A stretch of 64,000 nt of DNA from an uncultured Acidobacteriota bacterium (GCA_964412195.1 CAYPNP010000002.1:361308-425307); one strand, 5' to 3'. Shown: positions 1,641 to 33,895, numbered from the stretch's first letter. Notes: a model not told the origin generated them from the letters alone. Program-made: numbers and translations.

Positions 1641-2362
1641 CCGATCTCCACAATCACCTGCTCTGGGGGGTGGACGATGGGGCGTCCACCCTTTCGGATT
1701 CCCGGTCGATGCTTGCCGCCTACGCCCGTCTGGGCTATGTCCGGATCGCCTGCACTCCGCACAGCTTTCACCCCAGCTTCCCCCCGCCGGATCCGGACCT
1801 GCTTCAGGACCGTTTTCAGGAACTCGAATCTGTCGGACGCGAAATGGGATTGGAGCTGCTGCTCTGGAGCGAGCATTATCTGTCCGCTGAATTGATCGAT
1901 GCCATGGAGACCCGGACGGGTCGCCTGAGCCTGCTCCAGGATCGCTATCTGCTGGTGGAACTCGGCGCATTCACCAACCTGCAGCACTTTGGCAACTTCT
2001 CCTTCCGGTTGCAGCTGGCCCGCATCACGCCGATCCTGGCGCACCCGGAACGTTATGCCCACGTGGAGCGCCAATGGCCCCAGTTCACCCGCATCCGGGA
2101 GTGCGGGTGCCTGTTCCAATTGAACGCCGCCAGCCTCGCCGGGATCGAGGGCAAGCAGGTCAAACAGCGCGCCCTGCGTCTGATCGAGGAAGGATTGGCC
2201 GACCTGGTGGCCAGCGACGCCCACACGGCCGACGATGTGGCGAGGTTCGTGCCCCCCGCCCTCGCCTGCGTCAAGCAGTCGTTCGGTCCCGAGGCGGTCC
2301 GCCTTCTCTTCTCCGAGAATCCCGGCCGGATCGCCCGGGGAGCGGCGCCGACCACCTGTTGA
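1637..2362 (+). CDS. CpsB/YwqE-family PHP-domain protein-tyrosine phosphatase
   Basis: N-terminus MTDLHNHLLWGVDDGA and a downstream SDAH motif, typical of capsule-locus Mn-dependent tyrosine phosphatases. Start overlaps the previous stop. Confidence 0.75.
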   Translation: MTDLHNHLLWGVDDGASTLSDSRSMLAAYARLGYVRIACTPHSFHPSFPPPDPDLLQDRFQELESVGREMGLELLLWSEHYLSAELIDAMETRTGRLSLLQDRYLLVELGAFTNLQHFGNFSFRLQLARITPILAHPERYAHVERQWPQFTRIRECGCLFQLNAASLAGIEGKQVKQRALRLIEEGLADLVASDAHTADDVARFVPPALACVKQSFGPEAVRLLFSENPGRIARGAAPTTC

Positions 2363-2409
2363 CCCGATCCTCTCGCTGGAGGCATTGATTCCCATTTCGA
2401 GGTGAAGAC

Positions 2410-3678
2410 TTGTCCCGGTACCGGATCGCCTTCAGGGTCATCGCCGCGCTCCTCCTGTTCGCGTTGGCGGCGTGGAACCTCCTCCTTTCCATCTCCGCCG
2501 TGGACCGAACCCAGGAGACAGACCTCGCCGTCATCCAGCGGAAGGTCCGCCAATACCCCTGGCGGGCGGAGAGCTGGTATATCCTCGGCAGCATCCGGGC
2601 CGTCGACATGCGCTTCGCCTCCGCCGCGGACGCCCGCCGTTGCCTCGAGCGCGCCGTCAATCTCAATCCGTGGAACTACAAATACTGGGCGTCCCTCGCC
2701 GATGTCCTGACGGCCGCTGGAGACGACGCCCCTGCGCAGGAATGCATGGCTGCCTCCCTGGAACTCAACCGGGCCTTCACCGACCTCTACTGGCGGGCGG
2801 CCAATTTCTACGTCCGCCGCCAGGATTTCGAAAATGCCGCACGCTGCTTCCGGCAGTCGCTGGCGGGCGATCCCGGTCTGCTGCGCCCGGTGCTGACCAT
2901 CTGCTGGCGGGCCTGGCCCGATCGTGCCGCAATCCTCCGGGACGTCATCCCCTCGACGACACCCATGACCTTGAATGCGCTGCAGTGGTGCCTGGAGACG
3001 AAGGAGCTGGCCCTCGCCCGGCATTGCTGGGACCGGGTGATCCAGTCCGGTGAAATCATCGCGCCGCAGTCCTCGTTCGGATACATCAACGCCCTCATCC
3101 AGGCGGGACTGCCCGCGGATGCCCACCGGGTATGGGAGGAAACTCTCTCCAGGTCCGGCGGGGTCAGGCAGGCGGACAGCCCCAACCACGTTTACAACGG
3201 GAGCTTCGAACAGCCGTTTCTCAACGGCGGATTTGACTGGCGGCTCCGCACGTCGCCCCACCTGTCCGTGTTCGAAGCATCAGACCAGCGCTTTCACGAG
3301 TACCGTTCACTCAAACTGGTGTTCGACGGGGAGGAGAACTGGTCCGGGCCGATCCTGTTCCAGTACGTGTGGTTGGAAAAGAGGGGGGTCTACCACCTGG
3401 ACTACGCGCTCCAGAGCGAAGGCCTTTCGACCGACAAGGGCCTCTATTTCGAGATCCGGCAAGTCAGCCCGGAGGGGAATCCCGCCCTCCTCGCCAAGGG
3501 GCCGGAGCACCTGGACGATTCGGACTGGTCGATCCACTCGGTGCCGTTCACGGTCAGGGGGGACGGCACGCTGGTCGCATTCTCCCTCTGCCGCGACCCC
3601 TCCCGGAAAATCGACTGCCAGATCAAGGGCAAGGCTTGGCTGGACGACGTCCGCATCGAACGGGAGGCAGGCCCATGA
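2410..3678 (+). CDS. TPR-repeat membrane protein with a C-terminal beta-rich domain (hypothetical); TTG start
   Basis: N-terminal TM helix (IAALLLFALAAWNLLLSI), TPR-like helical repeats, and good coding bias. Stop overlaps the start of the next gene. Confidence 0.55.
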   Translation: MSRYRIAFRVIAALLLFALAAWNLLLSISAVDRTQETDLAVIQRKVRQYPWRAESWYILGSIRAVDMRFASAADARRCLERAVNLNPWNYKYWASLADVLTAAGDDAPAQECMAASLELNRAFTDLYWRAANFYVRRQDFENAARCFRQSLAGDPGLLRPVLTICWRAWPDRAAILRDVIPSTTPMTLNALQWCLETKELALARHCWDRVIQSGEIIAPQSSFGYINALIQAGLPADAHRVWEETLSRSGGVRQADSPNHVYNGSFEQPFLNGGFDWRLRTSPHLSVFEASDQRFHEYRSLKLVFDGEENWSGPILFQYVWLEKRGVYHLDYALQSEGLSTDKGLYFEIRQVSPEGNPALLAKGPEHLDDSDWSIHSVPFTVRGDGTLVAFSLCRDPSRKIDCQIKGKAWLDDVRIEREAGP

Positions 3679-5105
3679 CCCTTGCAATCCAGGAACTCCT
3701 CCTGTTCCTCTCCCTGGGATTTGCCGTGGTGGCGTTCGGGGCGAATCCCGACTGGGCCCGCCACATCTTCTGCATGCTGGTTTTTCTCACCGGCGCCTTC
3801 ATCGTGTTGACCACCCCGCCGGTTCCGACCGGCCGGCCTCTCCGCCGGTCCGCCGCGGTCCTGGCCGTCCTGATGGCCATCCCGCTCCTCCAGGTGGTCC
3901 CGCTGCCCACGCCCGTCCAGCAGGCGCTTTCACCGGTCCACGCCGCAATGATCCAACGGCTGGCCCAGACTGGCCTCCTGGAATCCTCCCCGGCCCACCG
4001 GACCCTGAGCATCTACCCCTTCGGCACCCTGGAACAATACGCGGTGCTCCTGGCGGCCGGGGTGCTTTTCTACGTGGGACGGCGTCGTTTCCTCGACACC
4101 GGCAGCCTTCAGCGGCTGGCCTGGGTCGTCCTGGGCCTGGGTTTCCTGGAATCCCTCTATGGCCTGTTTCAATACCTCGGCAAGATCCCGCACCCGTTCC
4201 TGCAGCCCGGATACGAGCTGGCGTCGGTGGCCAGCGGAACGTACGTCAACCGGAACCATTTCGCCGGCCTGCTTGAAATGGCCTTCCCCATCGCCATCGC
4301 CATCGCCTACGCGCACTTCCTCGTCCGGATCCACCCCGAGGTCCGCAGGACCCGCCGGTGGGTCCGCGCCCTGCTGACCCACCCCGACATGCCGCTCTTC
4401 TGCCTGTTCCTCTTCATCGCGGTGTGGATCTGCCTCGGGATCATCTTCTCCATGTCGCGGACCGGGATCACCAGCATGCTGGTGACCAGCCTCCTGATGG
4501 TCTTGCTGCTGGGGATCCGCCACAGCCGGCGCAGGATCCAGGTCCTCGGGCTGGTGTTCCTCCTGGCTGTCGCGGGCTATGCGGCGTACATCGGGATGGA
4601 AGAGGTGCTTCAGAGATTCGAACAGCTGCTGCGGGAGGATGCGGTGCTGCGGGAAGGGCGGATGGAAGTCTGGCGAGACTCCGTCACCATGATCCGCGAC
4701 TTCCCCCTGACTGGTGTCGGGTTGGGGAACTACCAGCACGCCTTCCACAAGTACAACCAGGTGCCCCGAAACGTGATTTACGACCACGCCCACAACGACT
4801 ACCTGGAATTCATCTCCGAGTTGGGCATACCGGCGGGTCTCCTGTTGATCGGCGCGGTCCTGTTCATCTTCGGGCGGGGGCTTCTCGCCTTCTTCCGGGT
4901 GGAGGGCAATCCCACGCTCCAAGCCATGCTCCTGGGCACCACCGGGGGGATCTTCAGCCTGCTGCTGCATAGCTTCACCGACTTCAACCTGCAGATCCCC
5001 GCCAACCTGGCCCTGTTCGCCCTGATCCTGGCGGCCGCCGCGGCCATGACGGAGAAGGAAGCTGCCGATTGGGCCGAAGCGGAGGCGGAGGCCGAACCGG
5101 AGTGA
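3675..5105 (+). CDS. O-antigen ligase family (Wzy_C) polytopic membrane protein
   Basis: Multiple TM segments plus the conserved region NRNHFAGLLEMAF...GVGLGNYQHAF...YDHAHNDYLEFISELG typical of WaaL/Wzy_C. The internal ATG at 3675 overlaps the upstream stop; the track ORF begins earlier (3369) in non-coding-looking sequence. Confidence 0.7.
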   Translation: MTLAIQELLLFLSLGFAVVAFGANPDWARHIFCMLVFLTGAFIVLTTPPVPTGRPLRRSAAVLAVLMAIPLLQVVPLPTPVQQALSPVHAAMIQRLAQTGLLESSPAHRTLSIYPFGTLEQYAVLLAAGVLFYVGRRRFLDTGSLQRLAWVVLGLGFLESLYGLFQYLGKIPHPFLQPGYELASVASGTYVNRNHFAGLLEMAFPIAIAIAYAHFLVRIHPEVRRTRRWVRALLTHPDMPLFCLFLFIAVWICLGIIFSMSRTGITSMLVTSLLMVLLLGIRHSRRRIQVLGLVFLLAVAGYAAYIGMEEVLQRFEQLLREDAVLREGRMEVWRDSVTMIRDFPLTGVGLGNYQHAFHKYNQVPRNVIYDHAHNDYLEFISELGIPAGLLLIGAVLFIFGRGLLAFFRVEGNPTLQAMLLGTTGGIFSLLLHSFTDFNLQIPANLALFALILAAAAAMTEKEAADWAEAEAEAEPE

Positions 5106-5204
5106 GCCCCGGGAGAACGGGAAATCGCCTGGAAAATCTCCTGTTGTCCCCCCTTTCCCCGCCGTGCTATACTGCCGTTGCGTTATTTGCATCGGTTGGA
5201 ATCA

Positions 5205-5303
5205 GTTTGGCTCTGGGGCACCAATTCAGAACCTCGAACCCTGCCAGATCCGGAAGGAAGCAACAGTAAGAGCGCCCTCTGTTTGTGGTGTTTCCAGAGC
5301 CTT
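5205..5303 (+). ncRNA. ffs: signal recognition particle RNA (small SRP RNA / 4.5S, ffs)
   Basis: Conserved SRP domain IV motif CCAGATCCGGAAGGAAGCAACAG. A terminal helix is formed by GGCTCTGG (5209) and CCAGAGCC (5294-5301), followed by a T-rich tail. It sits immediately upstream of dnaX, as in many bacteria. Confidence 0.55.
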
Positions 5304-5331
5304 TTATTCTTTCGTCCCAGCTTGAGCTGAC

Positions 5332-6975
5332 ATGCAGTACAAAGTCATCGCCCGGAAATGGCGCCCCCAGCAGTTTGACGACGTCGTGGGGCAGAAGACG
5401 ATCACCCGGACGCTGCAGAACGCCATCCAGCAGAACCGGATCGCCCACGCCTACCTCTTCACCGGCACGCGGGGCGTCGGGAAGACCTCCACCGCGCGCA
5501 TCCTGGCCAAGGCGCTCAACTGCGCCCAGGGCCCCACGCCGCACCCCTGCGACCAGTGCGACTCCTGCACCGAGATCATGCAGGGCAACTCGGTGGATGT
5601 CCTGGAGATCGACGCCGCCTCCAACCGCGGCATCGGCGAGATCCGCGAGCTGCGCGAAAACGTGCAGTACGCCCCCTCCCGGGACCGCTACAAGATCTTC
5701 ATCATCGACGAAGTCCACATGCTCACCATGGAGGCCTTCAACGCGCTCCTCAAGACCCTGGAGGAGCCGCCCGGGCACGTGATCTTCATCCTGGCGACCA
5801 CCGAGCTGTACAAGATCCCGCAGACCATCGTCTCGCGCTGCCAGCAGTTCGATTTCCGGATCGTGCCGTTCGACGAGATCTTCCAGCGGCTGAAGCGGAT
5901 CCTGCGGGCCGAGCAGATGGAGATTTCGGACCAGGCCCTGCACTTCGTCGTCAAGGCGAGCGGCGGCAGCATGCGCGATGCCGAGTCCGCCCTCCAGAAA
6001 ATCGTTTCGCTCGGCGGGGAAGGCGTCAGCGACGAGGACGTGGCCTCCCTGCTCGGCGTCATCCACCAGGATTCCCTAAACCGGATGATGAAGGCCATCC
6101 TCGAGCAGGACCGGCCGGCGATCATCGAACTGATCGACCAGCTGTACGAACGGGGCCACGACCTGCAGAATTTCCTCCGCTCGTTCATGGAATTCGTCCG
6201 CCACGTGGCCATCTACCAGATCACCCGGTCCGACTACCACCTCGTCTCGCTTTCAAAGGACGACATCGGCTTCATCGGGGAGGTGGCCACCCAGATGCAG
6301 CTCGAGGACTGCATCCGGTATTACGACCTGCTGCTGCGGAGCGACAGCGAGCTGCGCTGGACGCCCTTCGTGCGCTTCCACGTCGAAATGGCGTTCCTCA
6401 AGCTGGCTGCCCTGCCCCATCTGGCCTCCCTCGAGGAGATCGTGCTGGCGCTGCAGGAATTGCCCTCCGCCCTCCCCGGCGAGGAGCCGCCCGCCCCGGT
6501 GCGGTTCGATGCGGTCCCGTCGAATTCGAAATCCCCTCCGGCGCCGGCCGCCCCGCCCCCCGCTCCTGGGCCGGTGGCTCCAGCCGCGGCCGGGGATCGG
6601 GACAAGCTTCGCCTTCTCCGGGAGGAGATCGGCAAGAAAATAGCCCCCCTCCAACCCTTCCTCGCCCGCCTGGAGCTCCGGCTAGCTGGCAAGACCCTGC
6701 AGATCATCGTGCCGGAGAACAGCTTCTTCGAGAAAACCCTCCGCCAACCCAATACTCAGCAGCAGCTGGGCGAGGTCTACAGAAGCCTGTTCAACACCAC
6801 GCCGGAAATCGTCATCCAGCCCAAGCCGGTGGAAGTCAACGTCTCCAGCGAGGCGGAGAAAAAAAAACTGGCGGAGGAGCAGAAGCGCATCGAAGCCCTC
6901 TTCATGGATGACCCGGTGGCCCGCATCCTGATCGACAAGGTCTCGGGCAAGTGGATCTTCCGGAAGCCGTCCTGA
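5332..6975 (+). CDS. dnaX: DNA polymerase III subunit gamma/tau
   Basis: N-terminus MQYKVIARKWRPQQFDDVVGQ, a Walker A (GTRGVGKTS), zinc-module cysteines, and a Pro-rich linker. Confidence 0.9.
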   Translation: MQYKVIARKWRPQQFDDVVGQKTITRTLQNAIQQNRIAHAYLFTGTRGVGKTSTARILAKALNCAQGPTPHPCDQCDSCTEIMQGNSVDVLEIDAASNRGIGEIRELRENVQYAPSRDRYKIFIIDEVHMLTMEAFNALLKTLEEPPGHVIFILATTELYKIPQTIVSRCQQFDFRIVPFDEIFQRLKRILRAEQMEISDQALHFVVKASGGSMRDAESALQKIVSLGGEGVSDEDVASLLGVIHQDSLNRMMKAILEQDRPAIIELIDQLYERGHDLQNFLRSFMEFVRHVAIYQITRSDYHLVSLSKDDIGFIGEVATQMQLEDCIRYYDLLLRSDSELRWTPFVRFHVEMAFLKLAALPHLASLEEIVLALQELPSALPGEEPPAPVRFDAVPSNSKSPPAPAAPPPAPGPVAPAAAGDRDKLRLLREEIGKKIAPLQPFLARLELRLAGKTLQIIVPENSFFEKTLRQPNTQQQLGEVYRSLFNTTPEIVIQPKPVEVNVSSEAEKKKLAEEQKRIEALFMDDPVARILIDKVSGKWIFRKPS

Positions 6976-8055: not shown

Positions 8056-10464
8056 CTACTGCCGGACTTTCCACTCGATGATCCCGCCGGAAAATCCCGG
8101 CTGGAGCCGGGCCCGGATCCGGATCGCGCCAGTGGTCACAGGCTTGAAATGGACCTCGTTGTAGCGGTCCTCGGCGGTTCCGTACGTATCCAGAGCCTCG
8201 GCAATTGCCCAATCGTCGCCGGACTTGTAGAGCACCTCCCAGGAGGCCGGCATGCGGGCGACGCAGTCGTACTGGTCCGTCACCAGCCAATAGACTTGGA
8301 CGTCGGAGATGGTCGTCTCGCCAGGAAAATCGTACTGCACCCATTCCTCCGTCCCGTTCTGGAGCCACCAGGTGAAGTAGGGTTTGGAGGTGTCGCGGGA
8401 GCTTTTCGGCTCGTACAGGTCATTCAGGCCGTCCGCATACCCCGCCGACGAGCTGGCCTTGCTCCGGGAAGCGAGGGTTGGCTCGGGCACCGGCAGGGCG
8501 GTCCCGACCGAGGCCGGGATCCAGACCGCCATCTCGTCCCGGCCGCGGTTGTTCCACAAGGCGTATGGAATGGCGTGGAACTTCCCTTTCACCGGATGGG
8601 GATGGCCTTCCGCCTCCCTCTCCAGGAAACCGCAAGTCCCCTCAAGGACCACCGCCCCGCCGAGGAAATCCGGCTTGTATTTCGCCTGGATCCCCTCCAC
8701 TGCCGGCAGGAAAGCGTTCATGACGTGGCCGCCCGGCTGGTCCTTCCCCTCCAGACAGAAAACCACGGGCCCCCGTTCCAGGGCGACCTTGCTGCGGTCG
8801 TCCTCCACGCCGGCATCGGCACGCACCGTTCGCACCGGCATGGGCAGGCGCAGCGCAACCCGGTCCCCGCGCCCCCAGCGCCGCTCGATCCGGGCGAACC
8901 CTCCCTCCAGCTTGATCTCGAACGGCCGTCCATTGACCGACAGCGTCGCCCTTTGCCTGTCGGCTGAGCTGAACGTGTACAGATCACTGGGAATGGGCTG
9001 GTTCCGGGCCCAGCCGGGGATCCGGACCATCAAGGAGAACTCCCGTTCCCGGTCTGGAGTGACGGTCAGCGATACATCCCCCTGCCATGGGTAACCCGTC
9101 TTCTGGGCAATCTCAATCTTTCCCCCACCATCCGTGATGGAAGCCCGGCCGGATACAAACAGGTTCACATAAATCTCCCGGCCGCTGACGGCGTAGGCGT
9201 AGCCGGGCACCGATGGGATGAACCGGGTGACGTTCCCCGGGCAGCAGGCGCAGCCGAACCAGGGCGCCCGCTCGTGGGAGCCGTTGGATTCCAGGGGATT
9301 GTCGTAGAAGAAGCGGTCGCCGCTCAGCGAAACGCCCGACAGGACGCCGTTGTAAAGGGCCCGCTCCAGGACGTCGATATATTTCGCGTCCCCGCTGAGC
9401 AGAAACATCCGGTAGTTCCAGAACACGTTGGCGATGGAGGCGCAGGTCTCGCAATAGGCGGTCAGGTTCGGCAGCTCGTAGTTGTCGCCGAAACCTTCCC
9501 CCGCGCCGCGCGCCCCCATCCCGCCGGTGAGGTAGAGCTTCTTCGAGACCAGGTTGTCCCACAGCCGGTCCAGGGCGGCCCGATACGCCTCGTTTCCGGT
9601 CAGGCGGGCCACGTCGGCGACGCCGGCGTACAGGTATCCCGCGCGGACCGCGTGCCCGACCATCTCGTCCTGATCGACAACCGGCTGGTGGTCCTGGCTG
9701 TAAGGGCTCAGCTTGTGCCCGTCCCGCCCCCGCCCGGTCTCCTCGATAAAGAAGCCCGCCAGTTCGAGGTAATCGCGCATGCCCGTCACGAGGTACAGCT
9801 TGACCAGGGCCATCTCGATGATCGGGTGGCCGGACGGGCATTTCCGCTGGCCGGGCCCGGGGCCGAACTCCCGCCGGACCAGGTCGGCGTTCTTCAGGGC
9901 CACGTCGAGCAGCGCCCGCTTGCCCGTGGCCTGGTAGTGCGCCACCGCGGCCTCGTACAGATGGCCGCAATTATACAGTTCGTGGCTGTTCAGCTTTTCC
10001 CACCGCGCCGCGCCCATCCAGCGCTCCAGCCGGGAACACTGGTTGGTCCGGCAGGTGTACAGGTATCCGTCATCCTCCTGGGCGGCGGCGATCAGGGCGA
10101 TGATCTTGTCCAGATACTGATCCAGCTTGGGATCCGGATGCGTGGCCAGGGAGTAGGAGGCGCCCTCGATGACCTTGTACACATCGGTGTCGTCGAACGG
10201 GTAGTCGCCCTTGTGCTCGCCCTGGATCAACCCGCCGGCCAGCGCGAAATTGTCCATCCGGCCGGTTTCCTCGCACTTCCGGAAGGCGGACGGGATGGAG
10301 ACAGTGCGGTTGGTCTCGATCCGCGGCCGCCAGAAATCGTCCTCAAAGTGCACCCGCGTGAACGGCACCGGCTGGATTTCGGCGCGTTCCGCTCCCCGAA
10401 CGTTCTTGCCGGCAAACATCACCGGAAGCCCGATCGCCACGAGAATCTGGACCGCCTTTCGCAT
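8056..10464 (-). CDS. glycoside hydrolase family 127-like (DUF1680, beta-L-arabinofuranosidase-like) with a C-terminal carbohydrate-binding-like domain; secreted
   Basis: Signal peptide MRKAVQILVAIGLPVMFA after a GGAGGA RBS. Motifs YCETCAS and GCACCPGN match the Glu/Cys3 zinc site of GH127 HypBA1. The upstream 49 codons of the track ORF are likely non-coding. Confidence 0.8.
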   Translation of the reverse strand: MRKAVQILVAIGLPVMFAGKNVRGAERAEIQPVPFTRVHFEDDFWRPRIETNRTVSIPSAFRKCEETGRMDNFALAGGLIQGEHKGDYPFDDTDVYKVIEGASYSLATHPDPKLDQYLDKIIALIAAAQEDDGYLYTCRTNQCSRLERWMGAARWEKLNSHELYNCGHLYEAAVAHYQATGKRALLDVALKNADLVRREFGPGPGQRKCPSGHPIIEMALVKLYLVTGMRDYLELAGFFIEETGRGRDGHKLSPYSQDHQPVVDQDEMVGHAVRAGYLYAGVADVARLTGNEAYRAALDRLWDNLVSKKLYLTGGMGARGAGEGFGDNYELPNLTAYCETCASIANVFWNYRMFLLSGDAKYIDVLERALYNGVLSGVSLSGDRFFYDNPLESNGSHERAPWFGCACCPGNVTRFIPSVPGYAYAVSGREIYVNLFVSGRASITDGGGKIEIAQKTGYPWQGDVSLTVTPDREREFSLMVRIPGWARNQPIPSDLYTFSSADRQRATLSVNGRPFEIKLEGGFARIERRWGRGDRVALRLPMPVRTVRADAGVEDDRSKVALERGPVVFCLEGKDQPGGHVMNAFLPAVEGIQAKYKPDFLGGAVVLEGTCGFLEREAEGHPHPVKGKFHAIPYALWNNRGRDEMAVWIPASVGTALPVPEPTLASRSKASSSAGYADGLNDLYEPKSSRDTSKPYFTWWLQNGTEEWVQYDFPGETTISDVQVYWLVTDQYDCVARMPASWEVLYKSGDDWAIAEALDTYGTAEDRYNEVHFKPVTTGAIRIRARLQPGFSGGIIEWKVRQ

Positions 10465-10708
10465 TTTCACGTTGATTCCTCCAATCATGTACGCCCGAAA
10501 GCGGGTGTGGGATCGCCCCCCATTTATCCCTCTCCGCTGGCGGAATGTCAATCCCGGCGACGCTTTCCCCCCGCGGCCGTCCCGGTGGAGGATCCTGTCC
10601 GGACATGACATTTACCCCTCCCGGTCACAAAATACTTCTTTCTCCTTCGCAAATCTGATATAAAGTGTTGTTTGATTGTTTTATGCATTTTGTAATGGAG
10701 GCAAGCGT

Positions 10709-21905: not shown

Positions 21906-21947
21906 AGCAGCCGATCCTGTGGCCGCGCCGGGGCCGGAAAATAAAAA

Positions 21948-21970
21948 GGACCCTTGCGGGTCCTTTCACG
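21948..21970 (+). terminator. rho-independent terminator after the radical SAM gene
   Basis: GGACCC-ttgc-GGGTCC hairpin followed by TTTCACGTTT. Confidence 0.55.
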
Positions 21971-22484
21971 TTTGGGGAGGTTGGTGTTTTTCGGAAATCG
22001 CTATTGCAATGCTGATGCCAACCGAGGGATTTCCCAATTATCATTTTTATTTTCAGTTAATTGCGCGCGGATTAGCCGGTTGATCTGCTCTGAAGGGATT
22101 CCCAAAACGCAACGAAGTGTTTCAGCCCGCCGGAATCCCGCCCGCCGGAATCCATCATCCCAAGCGAGATTAATTTGCAACTGATTGATATATTATGCTT
22201 TTAATAATATGATCAGCAGCGCAACAATTTGATGCAGGAGCGAATTGGAATATTTTCAATTCTGTTATGATTTTGATTCATGAAAAATCTCACCCTGCCG
22301 GAGGCCGTTGACGTCTGGCAGTTTCCCCCTTGGCCCTCCTGCAACGTTATGTGGCACCCATCAACCCTCCTGGAAGCGGTCCCGGCCGTTGCGTCCCGGC
22401 CATCCCTGTGGTATAAAGGCCATTACTTCGCCCCCCGTCCGCCCGGATTTTGTCCGAACCGGCCGGCCGCCCAGGAGTTATGTG

Positions 22485-23438
22485 ATGGAGGAGACGCTCG
22501 AGAAGATCCGCCAGGGAGACCGGCGCGCACTCGCGCGGGCCATCAGCCGCATCGAGAACGGCGACCCGGCGGCCGTGGATCTCCTCAAGCAGGCCTTCCG
22601 GCACACCGGCCACGCCCTGGTGATCGGCGTGACCGGCGCCCCGGGGGCCGGCAAGAGTTCCCTGGTCGACCAGCTGACGGCCCAGATCCGCCAGTCCGGC
22701 CGCACCGTGGCGGTGGTCGCCGTCGACCCGTCCAGCCCTTTCAGCGGAGGCGCGATCCTGGGGGACCGCGTCCGGATGCAGCGGCACGCATCCGATCCCG
22801 GGACCTTCATCCGGAGCATGGCCACCCGCGGCAACCTCGGCGGCTTGTCCGGCACCACGGCCGACGTGGTGCTCCTGCTGGACGCCGCCGGCTTCGACTG
22901 CATCCTGGTGGAAACTGTCGGCGTCGGCCAGGACGAGGTGGACATCGTCAAGACGGCCCACGTCTGCCTGGTCGTCCTCGTGCCGGGCATGGGCGACGAC
23001 ATCCAGGCCATCAAGGCCGGCATCATGGAGATCGGCGACATCTTCGTCATCAACAAGGCCGACCGCGAGGGCACCCAGAAAACCGAGCAGGAGATCCGGG
23101 CCATCCTGGCCATGAACCACCGCGAGGACGGCTGGGACCCGCCGGTGGTCCGGACCGTCGCCATCCGCGGGGAGGGGACCGAGGATCTCCTCGGCGCGAT
23201 CCGGCGCACGGAGCAATTCCTGGAAACCCGCCACCGGCAGGGGCGGTTCGCCCTGCGCTCCACCCAGGAGAAGCTGTTGCAGCTGTCGCGGGATCGCCTG
23301 TTCCAGGACTTCCTGGAGGCTTCCGGCTTCGCCGAAAACCTCAAGGAACTGGCGGAAAAAGTGTTGGACAAATCCGTCGATCCCTATTCTATAATAGAAA
23401 ACTTCATCACCCGGTACAAAGGCAAAGGAGAGGTCTGA
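22485..23438 (+). CDS. meaB: methylmalonyl-CoA-mutase-associated GTPase MeaB/ArgK
   Basis: P-loop GVTGAPGAGKSS, the NKAD motif, and overall MeaB similarity. CAGGAG RBS 7 nt upstream. Confidence 0.85.
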   Translation: MEETLEKIRQGDRRALARAISRIENGDPAAVDLLKQAFRHTGHALVIGVTGAPGAGKSSLVDQLTAQIRQSGRTVAVVAVDPSSPFSGGAILGDRVRMQRHASDPGTFIRSMATRGNLGGLSGTTADVVLLLDAAGFDCILVETVGVGQDEVDIVKTAHVCLVVLVPGMGDDIQAIKAGIMEIGDIFVINKADREGTQKTEQEIRAILAMNHREDGWDPPVVRTVAIRGEGTEDLLGAIRRTEQFLETRHRQGRFALRSTQEKLLQLSRDRLFQDFLEASGFAENLKELAEKVLDKSVDPYSIIENFITRYKGKGEV

Positions 23439-23845
23439 TGTTCAAGAAAGTCGACCACATCGGCATCGCCGTGCCGAGCCTGGCGGAGACGCAGAAATTC
23501 TACCAGGACGCGCTCGGCCTGCACCTGCACGAGATCGAGGAAGTGCCCGAGCAGAAGGTCCGCGTGGCCATGTTCCCCGTCGGGGAGACCAACCTGGAGT
23601 TCCTCGAGCCCACCGGCCCCGAGTCCCCCATCGCCAAGTTCATCGAGAAGAAGGGATCCGGCATCCACCACGTCGCCATCCAGGTGGAGGACATCGACCG
23701 GCTGCTGGCCGACCTCAAGAGCCGCGGCGTCCGCCTGATCAACGAGACGCCCGTTCCCGGCGCCGGGGGCAAGCGGATCGCCTTCGTCCACCCCGCCTCC
23801 ACCGGCGGCATCCTCCTGGAGCTGTCCCAGGAAAAGCGCTCCTGA
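23438..23845 (+). CDS. mce: methylmalonyl-CoA epimerase (VOC/glyoxalase family)
   Basis: [12 protein letters not shown]...[11 protein letters not shown] is the VOC fold. Start overlaps the meaB stop. Confidence 0.8.
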
Positions 23846-23882: not shown

Positions 23883-24755
23883 ATGAACCAGATCCCCCTT
23901 GGCATCATCGGCGGCAGCGGCCTTTACAACATGAAGGAGTTGTCTGACATCGAGGAGATCAAGGTCGACACCCCCTTCGGCGCGCCCAGCGACAACTATA
24001 TCGTCGGCACTCTCGCGAAGCACCGGGTGGCGTTCCTGCCCCGGCACGGGCGGGGGCACCGCTTCTCGCCGTCGGAGATCAACTACCGGGCGAACATCTA
24101 CGGTTTCAAGAAACTGGGCGTGGGACAGATCCTGTCGGTCTCGGCCGTGGGCTCCCTCAAGGAAGAACACAAGCCGCTGGACATCATCCTGCCGGACCAG
24201 TTCGTGGACCGCACCACGCGGCGGGTCTCGACGTTTTTCGGCGACGGGATCGTCGCCCACATCGGATTCGGCGACCCGGTCTGCCACTCGCTGGCAGGTT
24301 TCGTCTGGCAGGGCGCCGAAAACGCCGGCATCCCGGTCAAGACGGGCGGGACCTATCTCTGCATGGAAGGCCCGGCCTTCTCCACCCGCGCCGAGAGCAA
24401 TCTTTACCGGAAGTGGGGCCTGGACATCATCGGCATGACCAACCTGCAGGAGGCGAAGCTGGCGCGGGAGGCGGAGATTTGCTACGTCACCATTGCCCTC
24501 GTGACCGACTATGACTGCTGGCACGAATCGGAGGAGGAGGTCAGCGTCGACATCATCATCGCCAACCTGATGAAGAACAACGAGAACGCCCAGAAGATCA
24601 TCAAGGAAACCCTCAAGCTCCTGCCGGAAGAGCGCGACTGCTCTTGCCGCCACGCCTTACAGAACGCCATCATCACCCAGCCGGACGCCATCCCCCCGGA
24701 GACTCGCGAAAAGCTGGCCCTGCTGGTGGGCAAGTACCTCCCCGGCAAGGAATGA
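23883..24755 (+). CDS. mtnP: S-methyl-5'-thioadenosine phosphorylase
   Basis: [11 protein letters not shown]-terminus and PNP/MTAP family blocks. Confidence 0.85.
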
Positions 24756-24786: not shown

Positions 24787-25701
24787 ATGAATCAAAGCCC
24801 TATCCGCCTGCTGGCTGTTGGGTCGGTCGCGTTCGACAGCGTCAGGACACCGTTCGGCCACGCGGACCGCGTGGTCGGCGGCTCCGCCACCTACTTCAGC
24901 CTGGCCGCCAGCTACTTCGCCGAAGTGGCCATCGTGGCCGTCGTGGGGGAGGATTTCCGGGAGGAGCACTTCCGGCCCTTTGTCGAAAAGGGCATCGACG
25001 TCCGCCAGGTCCAACGTGCCCGGGGAAAATCCTTTTACTGGGCCGGCGAGTACGGCGCCAACCTCAACGAGGCGAAGACCCTGGTGACGGAATTGAACGT
25101 CTTCGCCGACTTCCAGCCCGAGATCCATCCGGATTACCGCCACGCGCCGGTGCTCTTCCTCGGCAACATCGACCCGGTCCTGCAAAACCACGTGCTGGAC
25201 CAGATGGAGCGCCCCCGGCTGACGGGCCTGGACACGATGAACTACTGGATCCAGAACCGGCCCCGCGAACTGGCCGCCGTGCTCGGCCGCATCGACATCC
25301 TGTTCGTCAACGAGACCGAAGCCCGGATGCTCACCGGCGAGTTTCACCTGCTGCGCGCCCTGCGCCGGATCACGGCCATGGGCCCGCGGACCGTCGTCGT
25401 GAAGCGGGGCGAGTACGGGGCGCTCGTCTACCGGGACGGGGAGCTGTTCATCGCCCCAGCCTACCTCATGGAGGAGGTGTTCGACCCCACGGGGGCGGGC
25501 GACTGCTTCGGCGGCGGGTTCATGGGTTACCTCGCCAGCGTCCCGGAGGCCGATTTCCCTGCCCTGCGCCAGGCAGTCCTATACGGCACCACCATGGCCT
25601 CGTTCAACATCGAGAGCTTCTCAGTTGAGCGGCTGCGGTTATTGACCTTCCCCGAGATCCGCGAGCGCTGCGACCGGTTCCGGAAGATGATCACCGTCTG
25701 A
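24787..25701 (+). CDS. PfkB-family carbohydrate/nucleoside kinase
   Basis: Ribokinase-like GG motif and a C-terminal DPTGAGDCF anion-hole motif. Confidence 0.8.
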   Translation: MNQSPIRLLAVGSVAFDSVRTPFGHADRVVGGSATYFSLAASYFAEVAIVAVVGEDFREEHFRPFVEKGIDVRQVQRARGKSFYWAGEYGANLNEAKTLVTELNVFADFQPEIHPDYRHAPVLFLGNIDPVLQNHVLDQMERPRLTGLDTMNYWIQNRPRELAAVLGRIDILFVNETEARMLTGEFHLLRALRRITAMGPRTVVVKRGEYGALVYRDGELFIAPAYLMEEVFDPTGAGDCFGGGFMGYLASVPEADFPALRQAVLYGTTMASFNIESFSVERLRLLTFPEIRERCDRFRKMITV

Positions 25702-25774
25702 CCCCAATCGCCGGGTTGTTGGTTGTTTGGCTTTCGGGGGGATTCATTGACAACACGCCGTCGTCCAGGTTGAG

Positions 25775-27916
25775 ATGTTTACCGCTCCCGAGTCGAAAGA
25801 ATCGAAAAATTGCTCTTCTGAGCCAACAAGGATTTCCCGTGTTGAGTTGATATTTTTTCTGGTCCTTTTCCTCTTCACTGCCTGTATTCTGATCATGCAC
25901 TTCGATTTCCCCCCGCTCCCCCACAACGATTTCGTCCAATTCTCCAGTCCAGCCAAAGCCTGGCTGGAATTTCAGATGCCGAAGTATTACAAAATCATGC
26001 CAGCCTTCCCGCTGGCGATCGCCGGCGTATCCCTGCTGGTCCCCCATGATCCGACTTTGTTGCATTCTTGCGAAATCGTAGTCCTGGGATCGGCTCTGGT
26101 CTTCTTGATTTTCTTCTGGCTCATTGTCCGACGCATCCTGCCCCACCTATGGCCCGTGCTGATGCTGTTCATCGTGATCAACCCCTACTTCATGGAATTC
26201 TCGCTTCAGACCCTCATGGAGATGTTCATTCTGGCGTCATTCACGGTCACTTTATGGGCATGTTCCAGACGAACGGAGTGGTCCGCGCTGCCGGCTGCCT
26301 GGACTTCGTTGACCCGATACGATTCCGTGTTTGTCGTGCCGCTTGTCGGCATCTTCCAGTATTTGAAGGGCGGCAAGAAAATCCGTACTCTGATCATCAC
26401 GATCCTGGCCGGCACCCCTTTCCTGATCTGGCTGGTACTCAGCGTGATCCACTCCCCCATGGTGAATCCCTACGTGGAAGAGATCCTCGATCCCACCCGG
26501 GAATTCGCCTTCATTCCCCTCGTCCGGATGCTGGTGCGGATGCTGATCGGCAGATCCCCTGTAGCTTGGCCTGCTCTGACAGGAGGAGAGATCGTTCTGG
26601 GCTTGGGGGTATTTGTCCTCGCATTGATTGGCGCTGTCCGGCTATGGAAAAGCAATCGAATCACGACCGGAGTCATGATCGGTTTCATTGCGAGCTATTT
26701 CCTCGTCCACGCCATCTTCAGGGCGGCCAACTACAGGTACAACTATCCGATCATCCCCTATTTGGGCTTGCTCGTCTTCATCAGCTTGGAACCTCGGAAT
26801 TCCGCCATCCGGTTTGCCTGGTCCTGGCGGAGGGCGGCACTCTTTCTGCTCCCCGGCGCCCTCCTGATTTGGGGCACGTGGGGATCGATCTTGTCCGGAT
26901 GGGTCCTGGCAATGTGGCTGTTCGCCATCGCCTGGTTCACCGTGCTTTTCGGGTGGAAAGAAGCAGGATCCCGGAAAAGGCGAGTCATCGCGTTTTTCAT
27001 CGGTTTGGCTGGATTGCTATGTCTCTGGCCTCCTCTTAAAATCTGGGATCTATCGTACTTTGAACAGCGGGGCCGTTTTTCCGAACTCATCGCCGCTTAC
27101 CGGTGGGTGAAGCAGAACTGCTCTCCGGACGATCGAGTCCTCATGGTCACTCCGTGGTATCTGGAAGCCAGGTATCCCCGCGGAGAATTGAAGAATTTCG
27201 TAGCCACCGATAATTTGCAGAGTAAGGATGCGCTGGGTTTCATCGACGAGTGCCGGATTCAGGATTTGGACTATGTTATCTGGCTGAGCTATGCCAAGGA
27301 TTTCGGCCGGGTGGACTATTTTCACAAGGAGACGCGCGAGTACCTTTTAAACGAGGCTCAACTGGGCGATCCCCGATCGAAACCCAATTTCCAGCTGATT
27401 CGGGTGCTGCCTGGTTTAACCGGCCAACAAGCGTTGGTCTATAAATTCCGGCCGGAATCGTCCACGCGCATGCAGCAGGATTTCCTGGATTTCAACCGGG
27501 AAGACAACTTCCGCTTGCTTCTCTCTGAAGGATGGTGTCCATCATTGGACGGCCATCCCGGTGGCAGGTTCTTGTGGGCGGTGGGGAAAGCCTCCAATTT
27601 CAATCTATTCCTGAAGAATGTAAAATCGGGGGGATCATTAAATTTCGTGGCTTTTCCCTTGGTAGGAGATAAACTGCCCTCCCAGACGATCGATGTATTC
27701 GTGAACGATCACTGGACGGGCAAGGTGGTGCTGATCCCGAAGGAAGAGAGGTACTCTGTGGATTTGAAGGGAGATTTCCTCCTGACGGGCAGGAATCGTT
27801 TCCGCTTTGAATATGCTTTCTGCGCCAGGCCCATAGACCTGGGTACAGGTCCAGACGTCCGCGAGCTTTCCGTACTCTTCAAGAAGATATATTTTCTTTC
27901 CAACGGGAACCGGTGA
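25775..27916 (+). CDS. large polytopic membrane protein with a periplasmic C-terminal domain; putative GT-C-fold (ArnT/PMT-like) glycosyltransferase; start uncertain
   Basis: At least 10 predicted TM helices in the N-terminal 430 aa, then a soluble domain. The gene is markedly lower in GC (about 50%) than its neighbours and is immediately followed by a Dpm1-like GT2. Confidence 0.55.
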   Translation: MFTAPESKESKNCSSEPTRISRVELIFFLVLFLFTACILIMHFDFPPLPHNDFVQFSSPAKAWLEFQMPKYYKIMPAFPLAIAGVSLLVPHDPTLLHSCEIVVLGSALVFLIFFWLIVRRILPHLWPVLMLFIVINPYFMEFSLQTLMEMFILASFTVTLWACSRRTEWSALPAAWTSLTRYDSVFVVPLVGIFQYLKGGKKIRTLIITILAGTPFLIWLVLSVIHSPMVNPYVEEILDPTREFAFIPLVRMLVRMLIGRSPVAWPALTGGEIVLGLGVFVLALIGAVRLWKSNRITTGVMIGFIASYFLVHAIFRAANYRYNYPIIPYLGLLVFISLEPRNSAIRFAWSWRRAALFLLPGALLIWGTWGSILSGWVLAMWLFAIAWFTVLFGWKEAGSRKRRVIAFFIGLAGLLCLWPPLKIWDLSYFEQRGRFSELIAAYRWVKQNCSPDDRVLMVTPWYLEARYPRGELKNFVATDNLQSKDALGFIDECRIQDLDYVIWLSYAKDFGRVDYFHKETREYLLNEAQLGDPRSKPNFQLIRVLPGLTGQQALVYKFRPESSTRMQQDFLDFNREDNFRLLLSEGWCPSLDGHPGGRFLWAVGKASNFNLFLKNVKSGGSLNFVAFPLVGDKLPSQTIDVFVNDHWTGKVVLIPKEERYSVDLKGDFLLTGRNRFRFEYAFCARPIDLGTGPDVRELSVLFKKIYFLSNGNR

Positions 27917-27922
27917 GTCGTG

Positions 27923-28681
27923 ATGGAACCAACAAAAACAGGGGAAATTCCTCCAGCGACGAATGAAGATGCATCTCCGCCGAAAACGGAATCCCCCCTC
28001 CTCTCCGTCCTCATGCCCGTGTACAACGAGCGGGCGACGGTGGCGGAGATTCTCCGGCGGGTCCGGGCGGTGCCCCTGCCCCTGGAGGTCGTGGTGGTGG
28101 ACGACGGCTCCACCGACGGCACCCGCGAGATCCTGGCCGGCCTGGCCGCCGAAGATCCTGCCGTCCGGGTAATCTTTCACGAGCGCAACCAGGGGAAGGG
28201 CGCCGCCATCCGCACGGCCATCCGCCATGCCCGGGGGGAGATCTGCATCGTCCAGGACGCCGATCTGGAGTACGATCCCGGCGACTACCCGACCCTCATC
28301 GCCCCCATCCGCGAAGGCCGGACGCAGGTGGTATACGGCTCCCGGCCTCTCCACCCGGAGAACCACTATCCCCTTGACCGGTTCCGGCTCGGTTCTCTGG
28401 CGCTCACCCTGGCCGCCAACTTCCTGTACTTCTGCTGGATCACGGATGAACCGACCTGCTACAAGGTGTTCCAGACCGGGTTGCTTCAGTCGATCCCGCT
28501 CCGGTGCACCGGTTTCGAGTTCTGTCCCGAGATCACCGCCAAGGTCCGCAAGCGCGGCTGCCGGATCGTGGAAGTCCCCATTCGGTACCACAAGCGGAGC
28601 GTCGCCGAAGGAAAGAAGATCCGCTTCCGCGACGCCTGCATCGGTCTCTGGACACTGATCAAGTATCGGTTTACCGACTAG
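27923..28681 (+). CDS. family 2 glycosyltransferase, polyprenol-phosphate sugar (Dpm1/GtrB-like) synthase
   Basis: GT2 DXD region (VVVDDGSTDGT...QDADLEYDP) at the size of Dpm1-type enzymes. Confidence 0.8.
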   Translation: MEPTKTGEIPPATNEDASPPKTESPLLSVLMPVYNERATVAEILRRVRAVPLPLEVVVVDDGSTDGTREILAGLAAEDPAVRVIFHERNQGKGAAIRTAIRHARGEICIVQDADLEYDPGDYPTLIAPIREGRTQVVYGSRPLHPENHYPLDRFRLGSLALTLAANFLYFCWITDEPTCYKVFQTGLLQSIPLRCTGFEFCPEITAKVRKRGCRIVEVPIRYHKRSVAEGKKIRFRDACIGLWTLIKYRFTD

Positions 28682-28693
28682 CCGGCCCCGCCT

Positions 28694-29185
28694 TTATCGG
28701 AAGTAGACGTCCACGTAGTCGACCACGTCGTCGCAGGGGTTCTGCATCTCCTTCAACCGCCAGTATTTGCGCTTGCCGATGATCCGGAAAGTGAAGGTCC
28801 CCTCCCGCCGGCAGGGCTGTCCGCCGAAGATGTATCTGATTTGAGTGACGATCCGGCCCTGGAAGACGAACGCATCGGAGCGCACATCGAGGATGATCCC
28901 CTCCATCTCGATGAAATCGCCGCCTCCCTCCTGCCGCTGGCCGGCCCGGATGAACATCGTGCCGTCCCGCTCGGTCACCTCCGCCCGGCCGAATCGCTCC
29001 CAGCTGATCCACTGGAGCGAGAACTTATGCTCCCCGAGCAGCCGCTGCCGGGCCGCCTCGTCGCGGATCACCGTGCGGGGCGGCGCCGGCCCCGTCTCCC
29101 CCTGCCCGCACAGCGGGACCGCCAGTCCGGCCAAAATCACCAGAAGCGCTGTCAGACGAGAGAGCGACCGCGCCATCGATTTCAT
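28694..29185 (-). CDS. secreted hypothetical protein (signal peptide)
   Basis: N-terminal signal peptide LTALLVILAGLAVPLCGQG and good coding bias. Confidence 0.5.
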   Translation of the reverse strand: MKSMARSLSRLTALLVILAGLAVPLCGQGETGPAPPRTVIRDEAARQRLLGEHKFSLQWISWERFGRAEVTERDGTMFIRAGQRQEGGGDFIEMEGIILDVRSDAFVFQGRIVTQIRYIFGGQPCRREGTFTFRIIGKRKYWRLKEMQNPCDDVVDYVDVYFR

Positions 29186-32575: not shown

Positions 32576-33895
32576 ATGATTGAAAAAGGTGTCAAGATCG
32601 CTTCTCCGGAAGGAAAACTCGGGATCCTGATTCCGGGTCTGGGCGCCGTCGCCACCACGTTCATCGCCGGAGTCCTCAGCGTCCGCCGCGGCTTGGGACG
32701 GCCGTTCGGGTCCATGACCCAGATGGGCACCATCCGGATCGGCAAGCGCACCGACAAGAAATCGCCGCTGGTCAAGGATTTCGTCCCGCTGGCCGGCCTC
32801 GACCAACTGGTCTTCGGCGGGTGGGACATCTTCACCGACACCGCCTACGAGTCCGCCGCCAACGCCGGCGTGCTGCAGCCGGAGGACCTCGCCCCGGTGC
32901 GCGAGGAGCTGCAGAAGATCCAGCCGATGAAGGCCGTCTTCGACCGCCGGTACGTCAAGAAGCTGGACGGCCCCAACGTGAAGAAGGCCGCCACCAAGTG
33001 GGACCTGGCCCAGATGCTGATGGACGACATCCGCCGCTTCAAGGAAGAGAACGGCTGCAGCCGCCTGGTCATGATCTGGTGCGGCTCCACGGAGATCTTC
33101 ATCGAGGAGTCGGCGGTCCACCAGAGCATCGAGGCGCTGGAGGAAGGTCTCAAGAAGAACGACCCAAACATCCCCTCCAGCATGATCTACGCGTACGCCG
33201 CGCTGAAGCTGGGCATCCCCTTCGCCAACGGCGCGCCCAACCTGACCGTGGACACCCCGGCCCTCGAGGAGCTGGCCAAGCAGAACAAGGTGCCTATCGC
33301 CGGCAAGGACTTCAAGACCGGCCAGACCCTCATGAAGACCATCCTGGCGCCGGGCCTGAAGGCCCGCCTCATCGGCATCTCCGGCTGGTTCTCCGCCAAC
33401 ATCCTGGGCAACCGGGACGGCGAGGTGCTGGACGACCCGGACTCCTTCAAGACCAAGGAAACCAGCAAGCTGTCCGTGCTGGAACAGATCCTGCAGCCGG
33501 ACCTCTACCCCGAGCTGTACAAGGACCTCTACCATAAAGTGCGGATCCACTACTACCCGCCCCGCGGCGACAACAAGGAAGGGTGGGACAACATCGACAT
33601 TTTCGGCTGGATGGGCTATCCCATGCAGATCAAGATCGATTTCCTCTGCCGCGACAGCATCCTGGCCGCGCCCATCGTCCTGGACCTGGTCCTGCTCATG
33701 GATCTGGCCCAGCGCTGCGGCCTCTACGGCATCCAGGAGTGGCTGTCGTTCTTCTTCAAGAGCCCGCACCACCTGCGCGGCCTCTACCCCGAGCACGATC
33801 TCTTCATCCAGCAGATGAAGCTGAAGAATACTCTCCGGTATCTCAAGGGCGAGGAGCAGATCACCCACCTCGGGCTCGAGTACTACTACGACTAA
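32576..33895 (+). CDS. inositol-3-phosphate synthase (myo-inositol-1-phosphate synthase family)
   Basis: MIPS family blocks, an NAD-binding N-terminus, and the conserved SxxxNxLGNRDG region. Confidence 0.85.
   Translation: MIEKGVKIASPEGKLGILIPGLGAVATTFIAGVLSVRRGLGRPFGSMTQMGTIRIGKRTDKKSPLVKDFVPLAGLDQLVFGGWDIFTDTAYESAANAGVLQPEDLAPVREELQKIQPMKAVFDRRYVKKLDGPNVKKAATKWDLAQMLMDDIRRFKEENGCSRLVMIWCGSTEIFIEESAVHQSIEALEEGLKKNDPNIPSSMIYAYAALKLGIPFANGAPNLTVDTPALEELAKQNKVPIAGKDFKTGQTLMKTILAPGLKARLIGISGWFSANILGNRDGEVLDDPDSFKTKETSKLSVLEQILQPDLYPELYKDLYHKVRIHYYPPRGDNKEGWDNIDIFGWMGYPMQIKIDFLCRDSILAAPIVLDLVLLMDLAQRCGLYGIQEWLSFFFKSPHHLRGLYPEHDLFIQQMKLKNTLRYLKGEEQITHLGLEYYYD

Follow-up and report, generated by a model that had tools for sequence, protein, structure and literature searches.

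A horizontally acquired gene for a probable GT-C glycosyltransferase of a family new to annotation lies beside a resident GT2 gene in an uncultured Acidobacteriota bacterium

We analyzed a 64,000-nucleotide stretch of DNA from an uncultured Acidobacteriota bacterium (GCA_964412195.1, CAYPNP010000002.1:361308-425307; hereafter the window), in which two open reading frames (ORFs) follow each other on the same strand. The first, at 25775-27916 (+), starts with ATG and encodes a polytopic membrane protein of 713 amino acids (X713). The second, at 27920-28681 (+), encodes a GT2 glycosyltransferase of 253 amino acids and starts with GTG (an ATG is present at 27923), three nucleotides after the stop codon of the first. 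Both sets of coordinates and the immediate succession of the two genes had been proposed in a first-pass annotation made from the sequence, and were confirmed. The analysis revealed that the X713 gene was acquired horizontally and was inserted between a pfkB gene and the resident GT2 gene, before the separation of the window and a close relative (L088). X713 itself is very probably a GT-C glycosyltransferase. The reading we prefer, to which we give a probability of about 0.5, is that X713 is an inverting-type, lipid-donor-dependent GT-C that would take its donor from the adjacent GT2 and act on a periplasmic or surface glycan. This kind of system is already known; the GT-C family is new to annotation.

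Family, fold and anatomy of the 713-residue protein

X713 gave no sequence match in Pfam (E<=0.01), NCBIfam or the PDB. With a word-indexed search, only five relatives were identified among 5.8 billion proteins, and the same five were recovered when the search was repeated with a 70-sequence profile. An exhaustive search of 1.84 billion cluster representatives with a hidden Markov model profile yielded 2,527 representatives at E<=1e-3 and 207 at E<=1e-30. Among the matches listed, most were 550-620 aa in length and spanned query positions from about 20 to 560, and about nine representatives were aligned along the full roughly 700 positions, three being longer proteins of 888-1,342 aa. Scanning of GTDB species genomes with a 5-sequence alignment detected no relative, and scanning of metagenomes detected two loci with relatives. 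X713 belongs to a sequence family without a Pfam, NCBIfam or PDB member.

An alignment of 70 diverse family sequences (A2) was used for conservation analysis and structure modelling. Some of these relatives weakly matched known families, namely Glyco_transf_22 (4 of 70, best E 3e-6) and PMT_2 (3 of 70). Thirteen of the 70 also weakly matched NCBIfam NF046093 over the region from about transmembrane (TM) helix 2 to TM6, scoring 17-22 bits where the cut-off is 150; this model was not matched by the window protein. NF046093, the 'AZOBR_p60025 family cell surface glycopolymer formation protein', is the sole named bacterial family touched by the wider family, and no literature on it was found. Profile search of the PDB gave a weak match to glycosylphosphatidylinositol mannosyltransferase 1 over the first loop. 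X713 did not reach the gathering thresholds of the PMT_2/PMT/ArnT families (PF13231, PF02366; CAZy GT39, GT83), homology to which became visible only by profile-profile comparison: when the family was aligned by hhalign with five PMT_2-type proteins, a probability of 95.7% (E 9e-9) was obtained over 307 columns. The threshold of the GT22 Alg9-like mannosyltransferases (PF03901) was not reached by the window protein either.

The AlphaFold2 model built from the 70 sequences has a pLDDT of 92.6 and a pTM of 0.89. It supersedes a poor model built from five sequences (pLDDT 62), which already pointed to GT-C. The new model is structurally similar to solved GT-C enzymes, with ALG12 as the best structural match. 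Together with 13 membrane helices, an aspartate (Asp52) in the first loop and the hhalign result, this similarity upholds the GT-C architecture suggested by the first-pass annotation. Matches to the folds of oligosaccharyltransferases scored below those to ALG12, Pmt4 and ArnT. This bears on the proposal that X713 is an oligosaccharyltransferase or ligase of the PglB/AglB/STT3 type (GT66) using polyprenyl-diphosphate-linked oligosaccharides. The WWDxG motif occurs nowhere in the protein, nor does 'WWD' or W-x-D, and the periplasmic part consists of a different alpha/beta unit and a beta-sandwich resembling carbohydrate-binding modules (CBMs). We consider this proposal very improbable and rejected it.

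The membrane domain (aa 1-433; 25775-27073, +) is predicted from the model, the conservation and a positive-inside count to have about 13 TM helices and a cytoplasmic N-terminus. Hydropathy analysis identified at least nine strong hydrophobic segments; in the model, about 280 extramembrane residues come after the 13 membrane helices. Lysine and arginine account for 13 of 57 residues in the loops predicted to be cytoplasmic versus 10 of 121 in those predicted to be periplasmic, so that the modelled topology, with the N-terminus in and the active-site loop out, is consistent with the positive-inside rule.

It is known that a first loop with two short helices between TM1 and TM2 is a hallmark of GT-C enzymes. 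In the model of X713 this loop comprises 54 residues (aa 42-95; 25898-26059, +), with short helices at 53-64 and 77-86. It carries the sequence L-P-H-N-D-F (aa 48-53), including the putative catalytic Asp52 (nt 25928-25930), as well as Lys73 and Pro76. Asp52 and Pro76 are invariant in all 70 sequences. The first-pass annotation had suggested looking for a DD or DE motif in the first loop; the motif found is P-H-x-D-F and not DE, and hhalign places Asp52 on the aspartate of the 'DE' that is characteristic of PMT_2-type GT-Cs. Lys73, Glu149, Arg181 (within T-R-Y-D, aa 180-183), His312 and Arg321 are each at least 90% conserved in the 70-sequence alignment, and in the model they would lie at the periplasmic face.

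The membrane domain is followed by a periplasmic alpha/beta domain (aa 434-565; 27074-27469, +), defined from the model, which is common to most of the wider family and contains the near-invariant Trp444 and Trp503. The C-terminal CBM-like beta-sandwich (aa 566-713; 27470-27913, +) is found in a small subclade only. It is a mobile module, present singly or as tandem copies in other proteins (P0006, P0012, P0018, P0025). In P0006, a protein of 1342 aa encoded at 1516-5721 of locus L087 and derived from the same metagenome as P0002, a GT-C core is followed by several tandem CBM-like sandwiches. This arrangement suggests a modular expansion of the acceptor-binding region within the CBM-bearing subclade.

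Existing gene calls differ at the N-termini of both proteins. The NCBI annotation starts the GT-C at Met41 (673 aa), dropping 25775-25894 and with it TM1, and the GT2 at Met32 (222 aa), dropping 27920-28012 and with it a conserved beta-strand, the first ('LLSVL'); in the Logan gene calls the two proteins have 713 and 252 aa, respectively. The 713-aa start is preferred because the ortholog in the close relative L088 has serine instead of Met41 but retains the upstream ATG and TM1. The NCBI calls appear too short for both proteins.

Insertion of the GT-C gene into a resident locus

The X713 gene has a GC content of 0.535 and a GC content at third codon positions (GC3) of 0.68, versus a GC content of 0.644 in the rest of the window and GC3 values of 0.82-0.92 in neighboring genes. 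The first-pass annotation had given about 50% and 67%; the direction of the difference was right, and the figures were somewhat exaggerated. The gene is the lowest-GC stretch of 2142 nucleotides in the window (other stretches have a mean of 0.646, a standard deviation of 0.029 and a minimum of 0.55), and GC is low in all three domains. The low-GC block runs on into the first 27 codons of the GT2 gene (27920-28000, +), where GC3 is 0.41; the remainder of that gene is host-like (GC3 0.87). These codons specify a non-conserved N-terminal extension (aa 1-27) and constitute the 3' junction of the insertion. The extension could not be aligned between the window and L088 (dN about 1.1), homologues of the GT2 align only from about residue 27 on, and the N-terminus in the locus L092 is shorter and different.

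Comparison with related loci located the insertion. L088 derives from a close relative, with housekeeping proteins 93-98% identical and a gene order exactly as in the window. Its X713 ortholog is 79.5% identical (GC3 0.73), and its GT2 is 83% identical overall and 90% in the core. L092 and L093 represent a more distant relative, in which the neighboring proteins are 83-92% identical and the GT2 core 80%. Their gene order is MeaB-mce-MTAP-PfkB-GT2-glyQ-glyS, and the X713 gene is absent, as is a gene for a 163-aa protein found downstream of the GT2 gene in the window. In the empty site of L092 the stop codon of pfkB and the start codon of the GT2 gene overlap as ATGA. The GT2 tree agrees with the tree of the neighboring genes, so the GT2 gene is resident and vertically inherited. 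Foreign composition and the empty site in L092/L093 therefore establish insertion of the GT-C gene between pfkB and the GT2 gene, and bear out the horizontal acquisition proposed in the first-pass annotation. Loss of the GT-C gene in the L092 lineage is a less parsimonious explanation, which moreover leaves the composition unaccounted for. The insertion exchanged the original N-terminus of the GT2 for the variable low-GC extension.

The 5' junction is the 73-nt spacer between pfkB and the X713 gene (25702-25774, +), which is not present in L092 and is 77% identical to the L088 spacer. A weak terminator-like hairpin was found at 25699-25718, at the end of pfkB and the beginning of the spacer. 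The sequence TTGACA at 25747-25752 was considered as part of an imported promoter and rejected, since a -10 element in its best position would run into the ATG. No target-site duplication, direct, inverted or terminal repeats, or remnants of mobile elements were found at the insertion junctions. The known homologues of X713 are encoded by high-GC genes that match their own contigs, and none of them is therefore the donor; the GT-C gene came from a lower-GC source.

Both genes are functional and under purifying selection, as follows from low ratios of nonsynonymous to synonymous substitution (dN/dS) between the window and L088: 0.18 for the X713 gene (0.10-0.23 per domain), and 0.20 overall and 0.11 in the core for the GT2 gene. 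The existence of homologues also supports X713 as the product of a real gene. These values bear on the possibility that X713 is a non-catalytic protein with a GT-C fold, like PIG-U/GAB1, or the product of a decaying foreign gene without function. Selection extends across all three domains, the first-loop aspartate is invariant and polar residues of the periplasmic face are conserved across the family of 2,527 representatives, which makes either version extremely improbable. Synonymous divergence (dS) between the window and L088 is about 0.6 for both the GT-C and the GT2 genes, about twice that of the flanking genes (0.12-0.35); a weaker codon bias, or recombination that exchanged the two genes together, could account for the raised values.

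Foreign composition is limited to the GT-C gene and the 27 codons that begin the GT2 gene, and the synthase and the GT-C did not move as a cassette. The pairing is a lineage-specific juxtaposition, in which a foreign GT-C was captured beside a resident donor synthase, and not an inherited two-gene cassette. The dedicated two-gene module envisaged in the first-pass annotation is not supported by the comparison, in view of the GT2 being resident without the GT-C in L092/L093 and of no GT2 relative having been found in the available flanks, short at several loci, of seven loci with X713 homologues.

The adjacent GT2 and the proposed reaction

The GT2 protein, of the GT-A fold, matched PF00535 at 6e-38, and a DxD motif (D113-A-D115) was read from the sequence at nt 28256-28264. 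Its best NCBIfam matches were AglJ (residues 29-246), PpgS (30-232) and the haloarchaeal dolichyl-P hexose transferase (32-227). The dolichyl-phosphate mannose synthase (DPMS) of Pyrococcus furiosus (5mlz) matched at 1e-17 over residues 24-231, the interface-helix region included, and matches to ArnC and GtrB were also obtained. Full-length matches were to polyprenyl-phosphate glycosyltransferases only. A processive GT2 synthase was rejected: there is no TM domain and no QxxRW motif, and PgaC and NodC matched only the N-terminal part. The assignment to the Dpm1/GtrB (Dpm1/ArnC/GtrB/PpgS) type, already made in the first-pass annotation, is well supported by these matches, and the protein is probably a polyprenyl-phosphate sugar synthase making a lipid-linked sugar. 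Human DPM1, the catalytic domain of mycobacterial Ppm1, and PpgS form a subclass without a membrane anchor, which the GT2, itself devoid of TM helices, resembles.

The neighborhoods of GT2 homologues were sampled at 80 loci from GTDB species genomes (best homologue 56% identity). A polytopic membrane ORF was found within 3.5 kb of the homologue at 40 of the 80 loci, and a PMT_2-like gene at a minimum of 12. When ten membrane ORFs lying immediately downstream were scanned, five matched PMT_2 and one YfhO. Single unannotated membrane proteins beside the homologues gave hhalign probabilities below 50%.

A functional coupling of the GT-C and the GT2 is plausible given the same strand, the 3-nt gap and the matching biochemistry. 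Together, the fold and the adjacent GT2 point to a polyprenyl-(di)phosphate-linked donor at the extracytoplasmic face. In the proposed scheme the soluble GT2 would use a nucleotide sugar to load a monosaccharide onto polyprenyl (undecaprenyl) phosphate on the cytoplasmic side of the inner membrane, and the lipid-linked sugar would be flipped by a transporter encoded elsewhere. The GT-C would then bind the flipped donor at the periplasmic face, with Asp52 as a putative catalytic or acceptor-activating residue and the conserved basic residues Lys73, Arg181, His312 and Arg321 possibly holding the phosphate. Finally, the sugar would be passed to a glycan of the periplasm or the cell surface, which the C-terminal CBM-like domain would hold.

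That domain favors a glycan acceptor over a protein one, a choice toward which the balance leans modestly. The CBMs of the GT-Cs GT136 ORF12, EmbA-C and AftD bind polysaccharide acceptors (PMC11127046). By the same argument it is unlikely that X713 is a PMT/TMTC-like protein O-glycosyltransferase acting on serine or threonine of periplasmic or surface proteins, even with the profile-profile relationship to PMT_2-type proteins.

Several observations weigh against the proposed scheme. In L092/L093 the GT2 occupies this locus with no GT-C beside it, and it must therefore have another role or partner. No relative of the GT2 was found in the available flanks, short at several loci, of the seven loci with X713 homologues. 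No flippase gene of the GtrA, SMR or MATE type is adjacent or evident in the window, where the other multi-TM ORFs scanned against Pfam were Wzy_C, peptidase M48, rhomboid and ExbB, and a 92-aa ORF with two TM segments gave no match. The GT2 has no TM helix or hydrophobic segment, unlike GtrB, ArnC and the P. furiosus DPMS. It reached no equivalog cut-off (AglJ was best, with 97.6 bits against 325, and all others were far below) and so is not an ortholog of any named synthase. Close homologues also sit among GT4 genes without a GT-C nearby, which makes a non-lipid acceptor for the GT2 possible.

Some of these points could be explained if X713 is a GT-C that is independent of its neighbor. The adjacency would then be accidental, the donor would come from another synthase and the GT2 would serve other GT-Cs. 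The occurrence of the resident GT2 without the GT-C, the X713 homologues without a GT2 in their available flanks and the confinement of foreign composition to the GT-C gene and the first 27 GT2 codons are all in line with such independence. Against it, genes on one strand with 3 nt between them are expected to be co-transcribed and probably also coupled in translation, purifying selection has maintained the arrangement since the separation from L088, and the GT2 subfamily often adjoins GT-C genes elsewhere. We regard independence as a real but less likely possibility; the odds that the GT-C draws its donor from the adjacent GT2 are about even.

The proposed pairing of a GT-C with an adjacent donor synthase has counterparts in known systems. 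In the GtrA/GtrB/Gtr* systems of Shigella and Salmonella, and in the system of polyprenyl-phosphoribose synthase, MATE flippase and GT136 (PMC11127046), a synthase gene likewise lies beside a GT-C gene. The GT136 protein ORF12 also carries an extracytoplasmic CBM-like domain on its GT-C (PMC11127046), and seroconversion genes, as the X713 gene, were horizontally acquired. The differences are that the three-component Gtr-type systems include a flippase gene, which the locus does not, that GtrB has two C-terminal TM helices absent from the GT2 described here, and that X713 belongs to a sequence family other than those of the Gtr and GT136 GT-Cs. Furthermore, the synthase gene here is resident, sits among housekeeping genes and, unlike in Gtr-type systems, is not part of a mobile cassette.

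The second group of comparisons concerns the GT-C itself. Relative to the ArnC/ArnT pair (GT2 and GT83) and PMT_2 (PF13231), X713 falls below every Pfam threshold, has P-H-x-D-F in place of DE and has other periplasmic domains; no evidence for lipid A as the acceptor was found. Compared with the eukaryotic Dol-P-Man-dependent mannosyltransferases ALG12/ALG9 (GT22, PF03901), which act with Dpm1, it shows about 12% identity, is bacterial and has additional alpha/beta and CBM-like domains, and the acceptor of those enzymes, the Dol-PP-oligosaccharide of the N-glycan pathway, is not possible for it. The mycobacterial arabinosyltransferases EmbA/B/C and AftD, which are among the fold matches, share the same domain logic, a GT-C core with C-terminal CBMs that hold a polysaccharide acceptor (PMC11127046).

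Pairs of a GT-C and a polyprenyl-phosphate sugar synthase decorate O-antigens, teichoic acids, arabinans and proteins, and drive the diversity of surface antigens. The present analysis provides a high-confidence model and a candidate motif (P-H-x-D-F, T-R-Y-D) for a sizeable GT-C family that had no Pfam, NCBIfam or structural representative, and a small subclade of which is predicted to have gained a CBM-like acceptor-binding module. The filled and empty sites are a natural example of a foreign GT-C landing upstream of a resident donor synthase, a way in which a new surface modification could arise from transfer of a single gene. Should activity be demonstrated, recognition as a new CAZy GT family would probably be warranted, as it was for GT136.

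Neighboring genes and other features of the window

Upstream of the pair, on the same strand, lie genes for MeaB, methylmalonyl-CoA epimerase (mce), 5'-methylthioadenosine (MTA) phosphorylase (MTAP) and a PfkB-family kinase. Downstream are the convergent gene for the 163-aa protein, at which the operon ends, and then glyQ and glyS. The MTAP gene (23883-24755, +) matched TIGR01694 above the cut-off with 312.7 bits. The gene at 24787-25701 (+) encodes a PfkB-family sugar kinase (PF00294) of ambiguous specificity, with ribose-1-phosphate kinases among its weak NCBIfam matches. Both are syntenic with the GT2 gene in L088, L092 and L093; in L092 the string of three occupies 1688-4219.

This synteny could be explained if the operon MTAP-PfkB-(GT-C)-GT2 turned MTA into a lipid-linked methylthio-pentose for placement on a surface glycan. 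A precedent would be Mycobacterium tuberculosis, whose MtxS is a small soluble GT2. According to PMC11127046, PMC8780516 and PMC12088412, methylthioxylose is derived there from MTA, MtxS (Rv0539) loads decaprenyl phosphate and the GT-C MtxT (Rv0541c) carries out the transfer; PMC11127046 describes the existence of the methylthioxylose reaction outside the assembly of lipoarabinomannan as unclear. The contiguity of MTAP, PfkB kinase and GT2 genes in three related lineages and the overlap of pfkB with the GT2 gene in L092 agree with such a route. On the other hand, MTAP or PfkB was found near a GT2 homologue at none of the 80 sampled loci, the operon has no nucleotidyltransferase or epimerase, and the same string includes unrelated housekeeping genes (MeaB, mce, glyQS). 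The string may thus reflect a functional link or simply housekeeping synteny, and we hold the methylthio-sugar route to be very improbable. If true, it would be the first counterpart of MtxS/MtxT beyond mycobacterial lipoarabinomannan.

The 163-aa protein (28694-29185, -) has a signal peptide and is PM1083-like; its gene is host-like in composition (GC3 0.87). It accompanies the X713 gene in the window, L088 and L089 and is missing in L092. The precomputed Pfam match PF27214 'PM1083' is attached to the protein in L088 and L089, and no PM1083-like gene was found near the homologues of X713.

A 521-aa ORF at 22280-23845 (GC3 0.60) proved to be spurious, a frame that merely stays open over a long distance. 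The genes actually present in this region encode MeaB, in the frame of the ORF at 22308-23438, and the 135-aa methylmalonyl-CoA epimerase (23438-23845), in agreement with gene calls in L088 and L092. Between a radical-SAM gene and MeaB lies a 579-nt low-GC intergenic region (21906-22484; about 0.48-0.54), which is 85% identical to its L088 counterpart; no convincing ORF was found in it, and Rfam gave nothing at the gathering threshold. The sole Rfam match in the window was the bacterial small signal recognition particle RNA (RF00169, 50.2 bits) at 5209-5304 (+), and no tRNA genes were detected across the 64 kb.

The window carries surface-glycan genes of its diderm host, among them those for a TonB-dependent receptor, ExbB and a protein of the Wzy_C/O-antigen-ligase family. 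The last is a membrane protein of 578 aa (3369-5105, +). Further envelope- or glycan-related genes encode a GH127 beta-L-arabinofuranosidase with a C-terminal F5/8-type-C (galactose-binding-like) domain (8056-10611, -) and, directly 3' of glyS, a myo-inositol-1-phosphate synthase (32576-33895, +). A second stretch of atypical composition, with a GC content of about 0.50 and 1-kb windows down to 0.48, extends from about 62700 to 64000 (+), where the window cuts it off. The partial gene in it specifies a subtilisin-like S8 peptidase, recognizable by the motifs HGTHTSG and GTSMANP, and may be another foreign gene.

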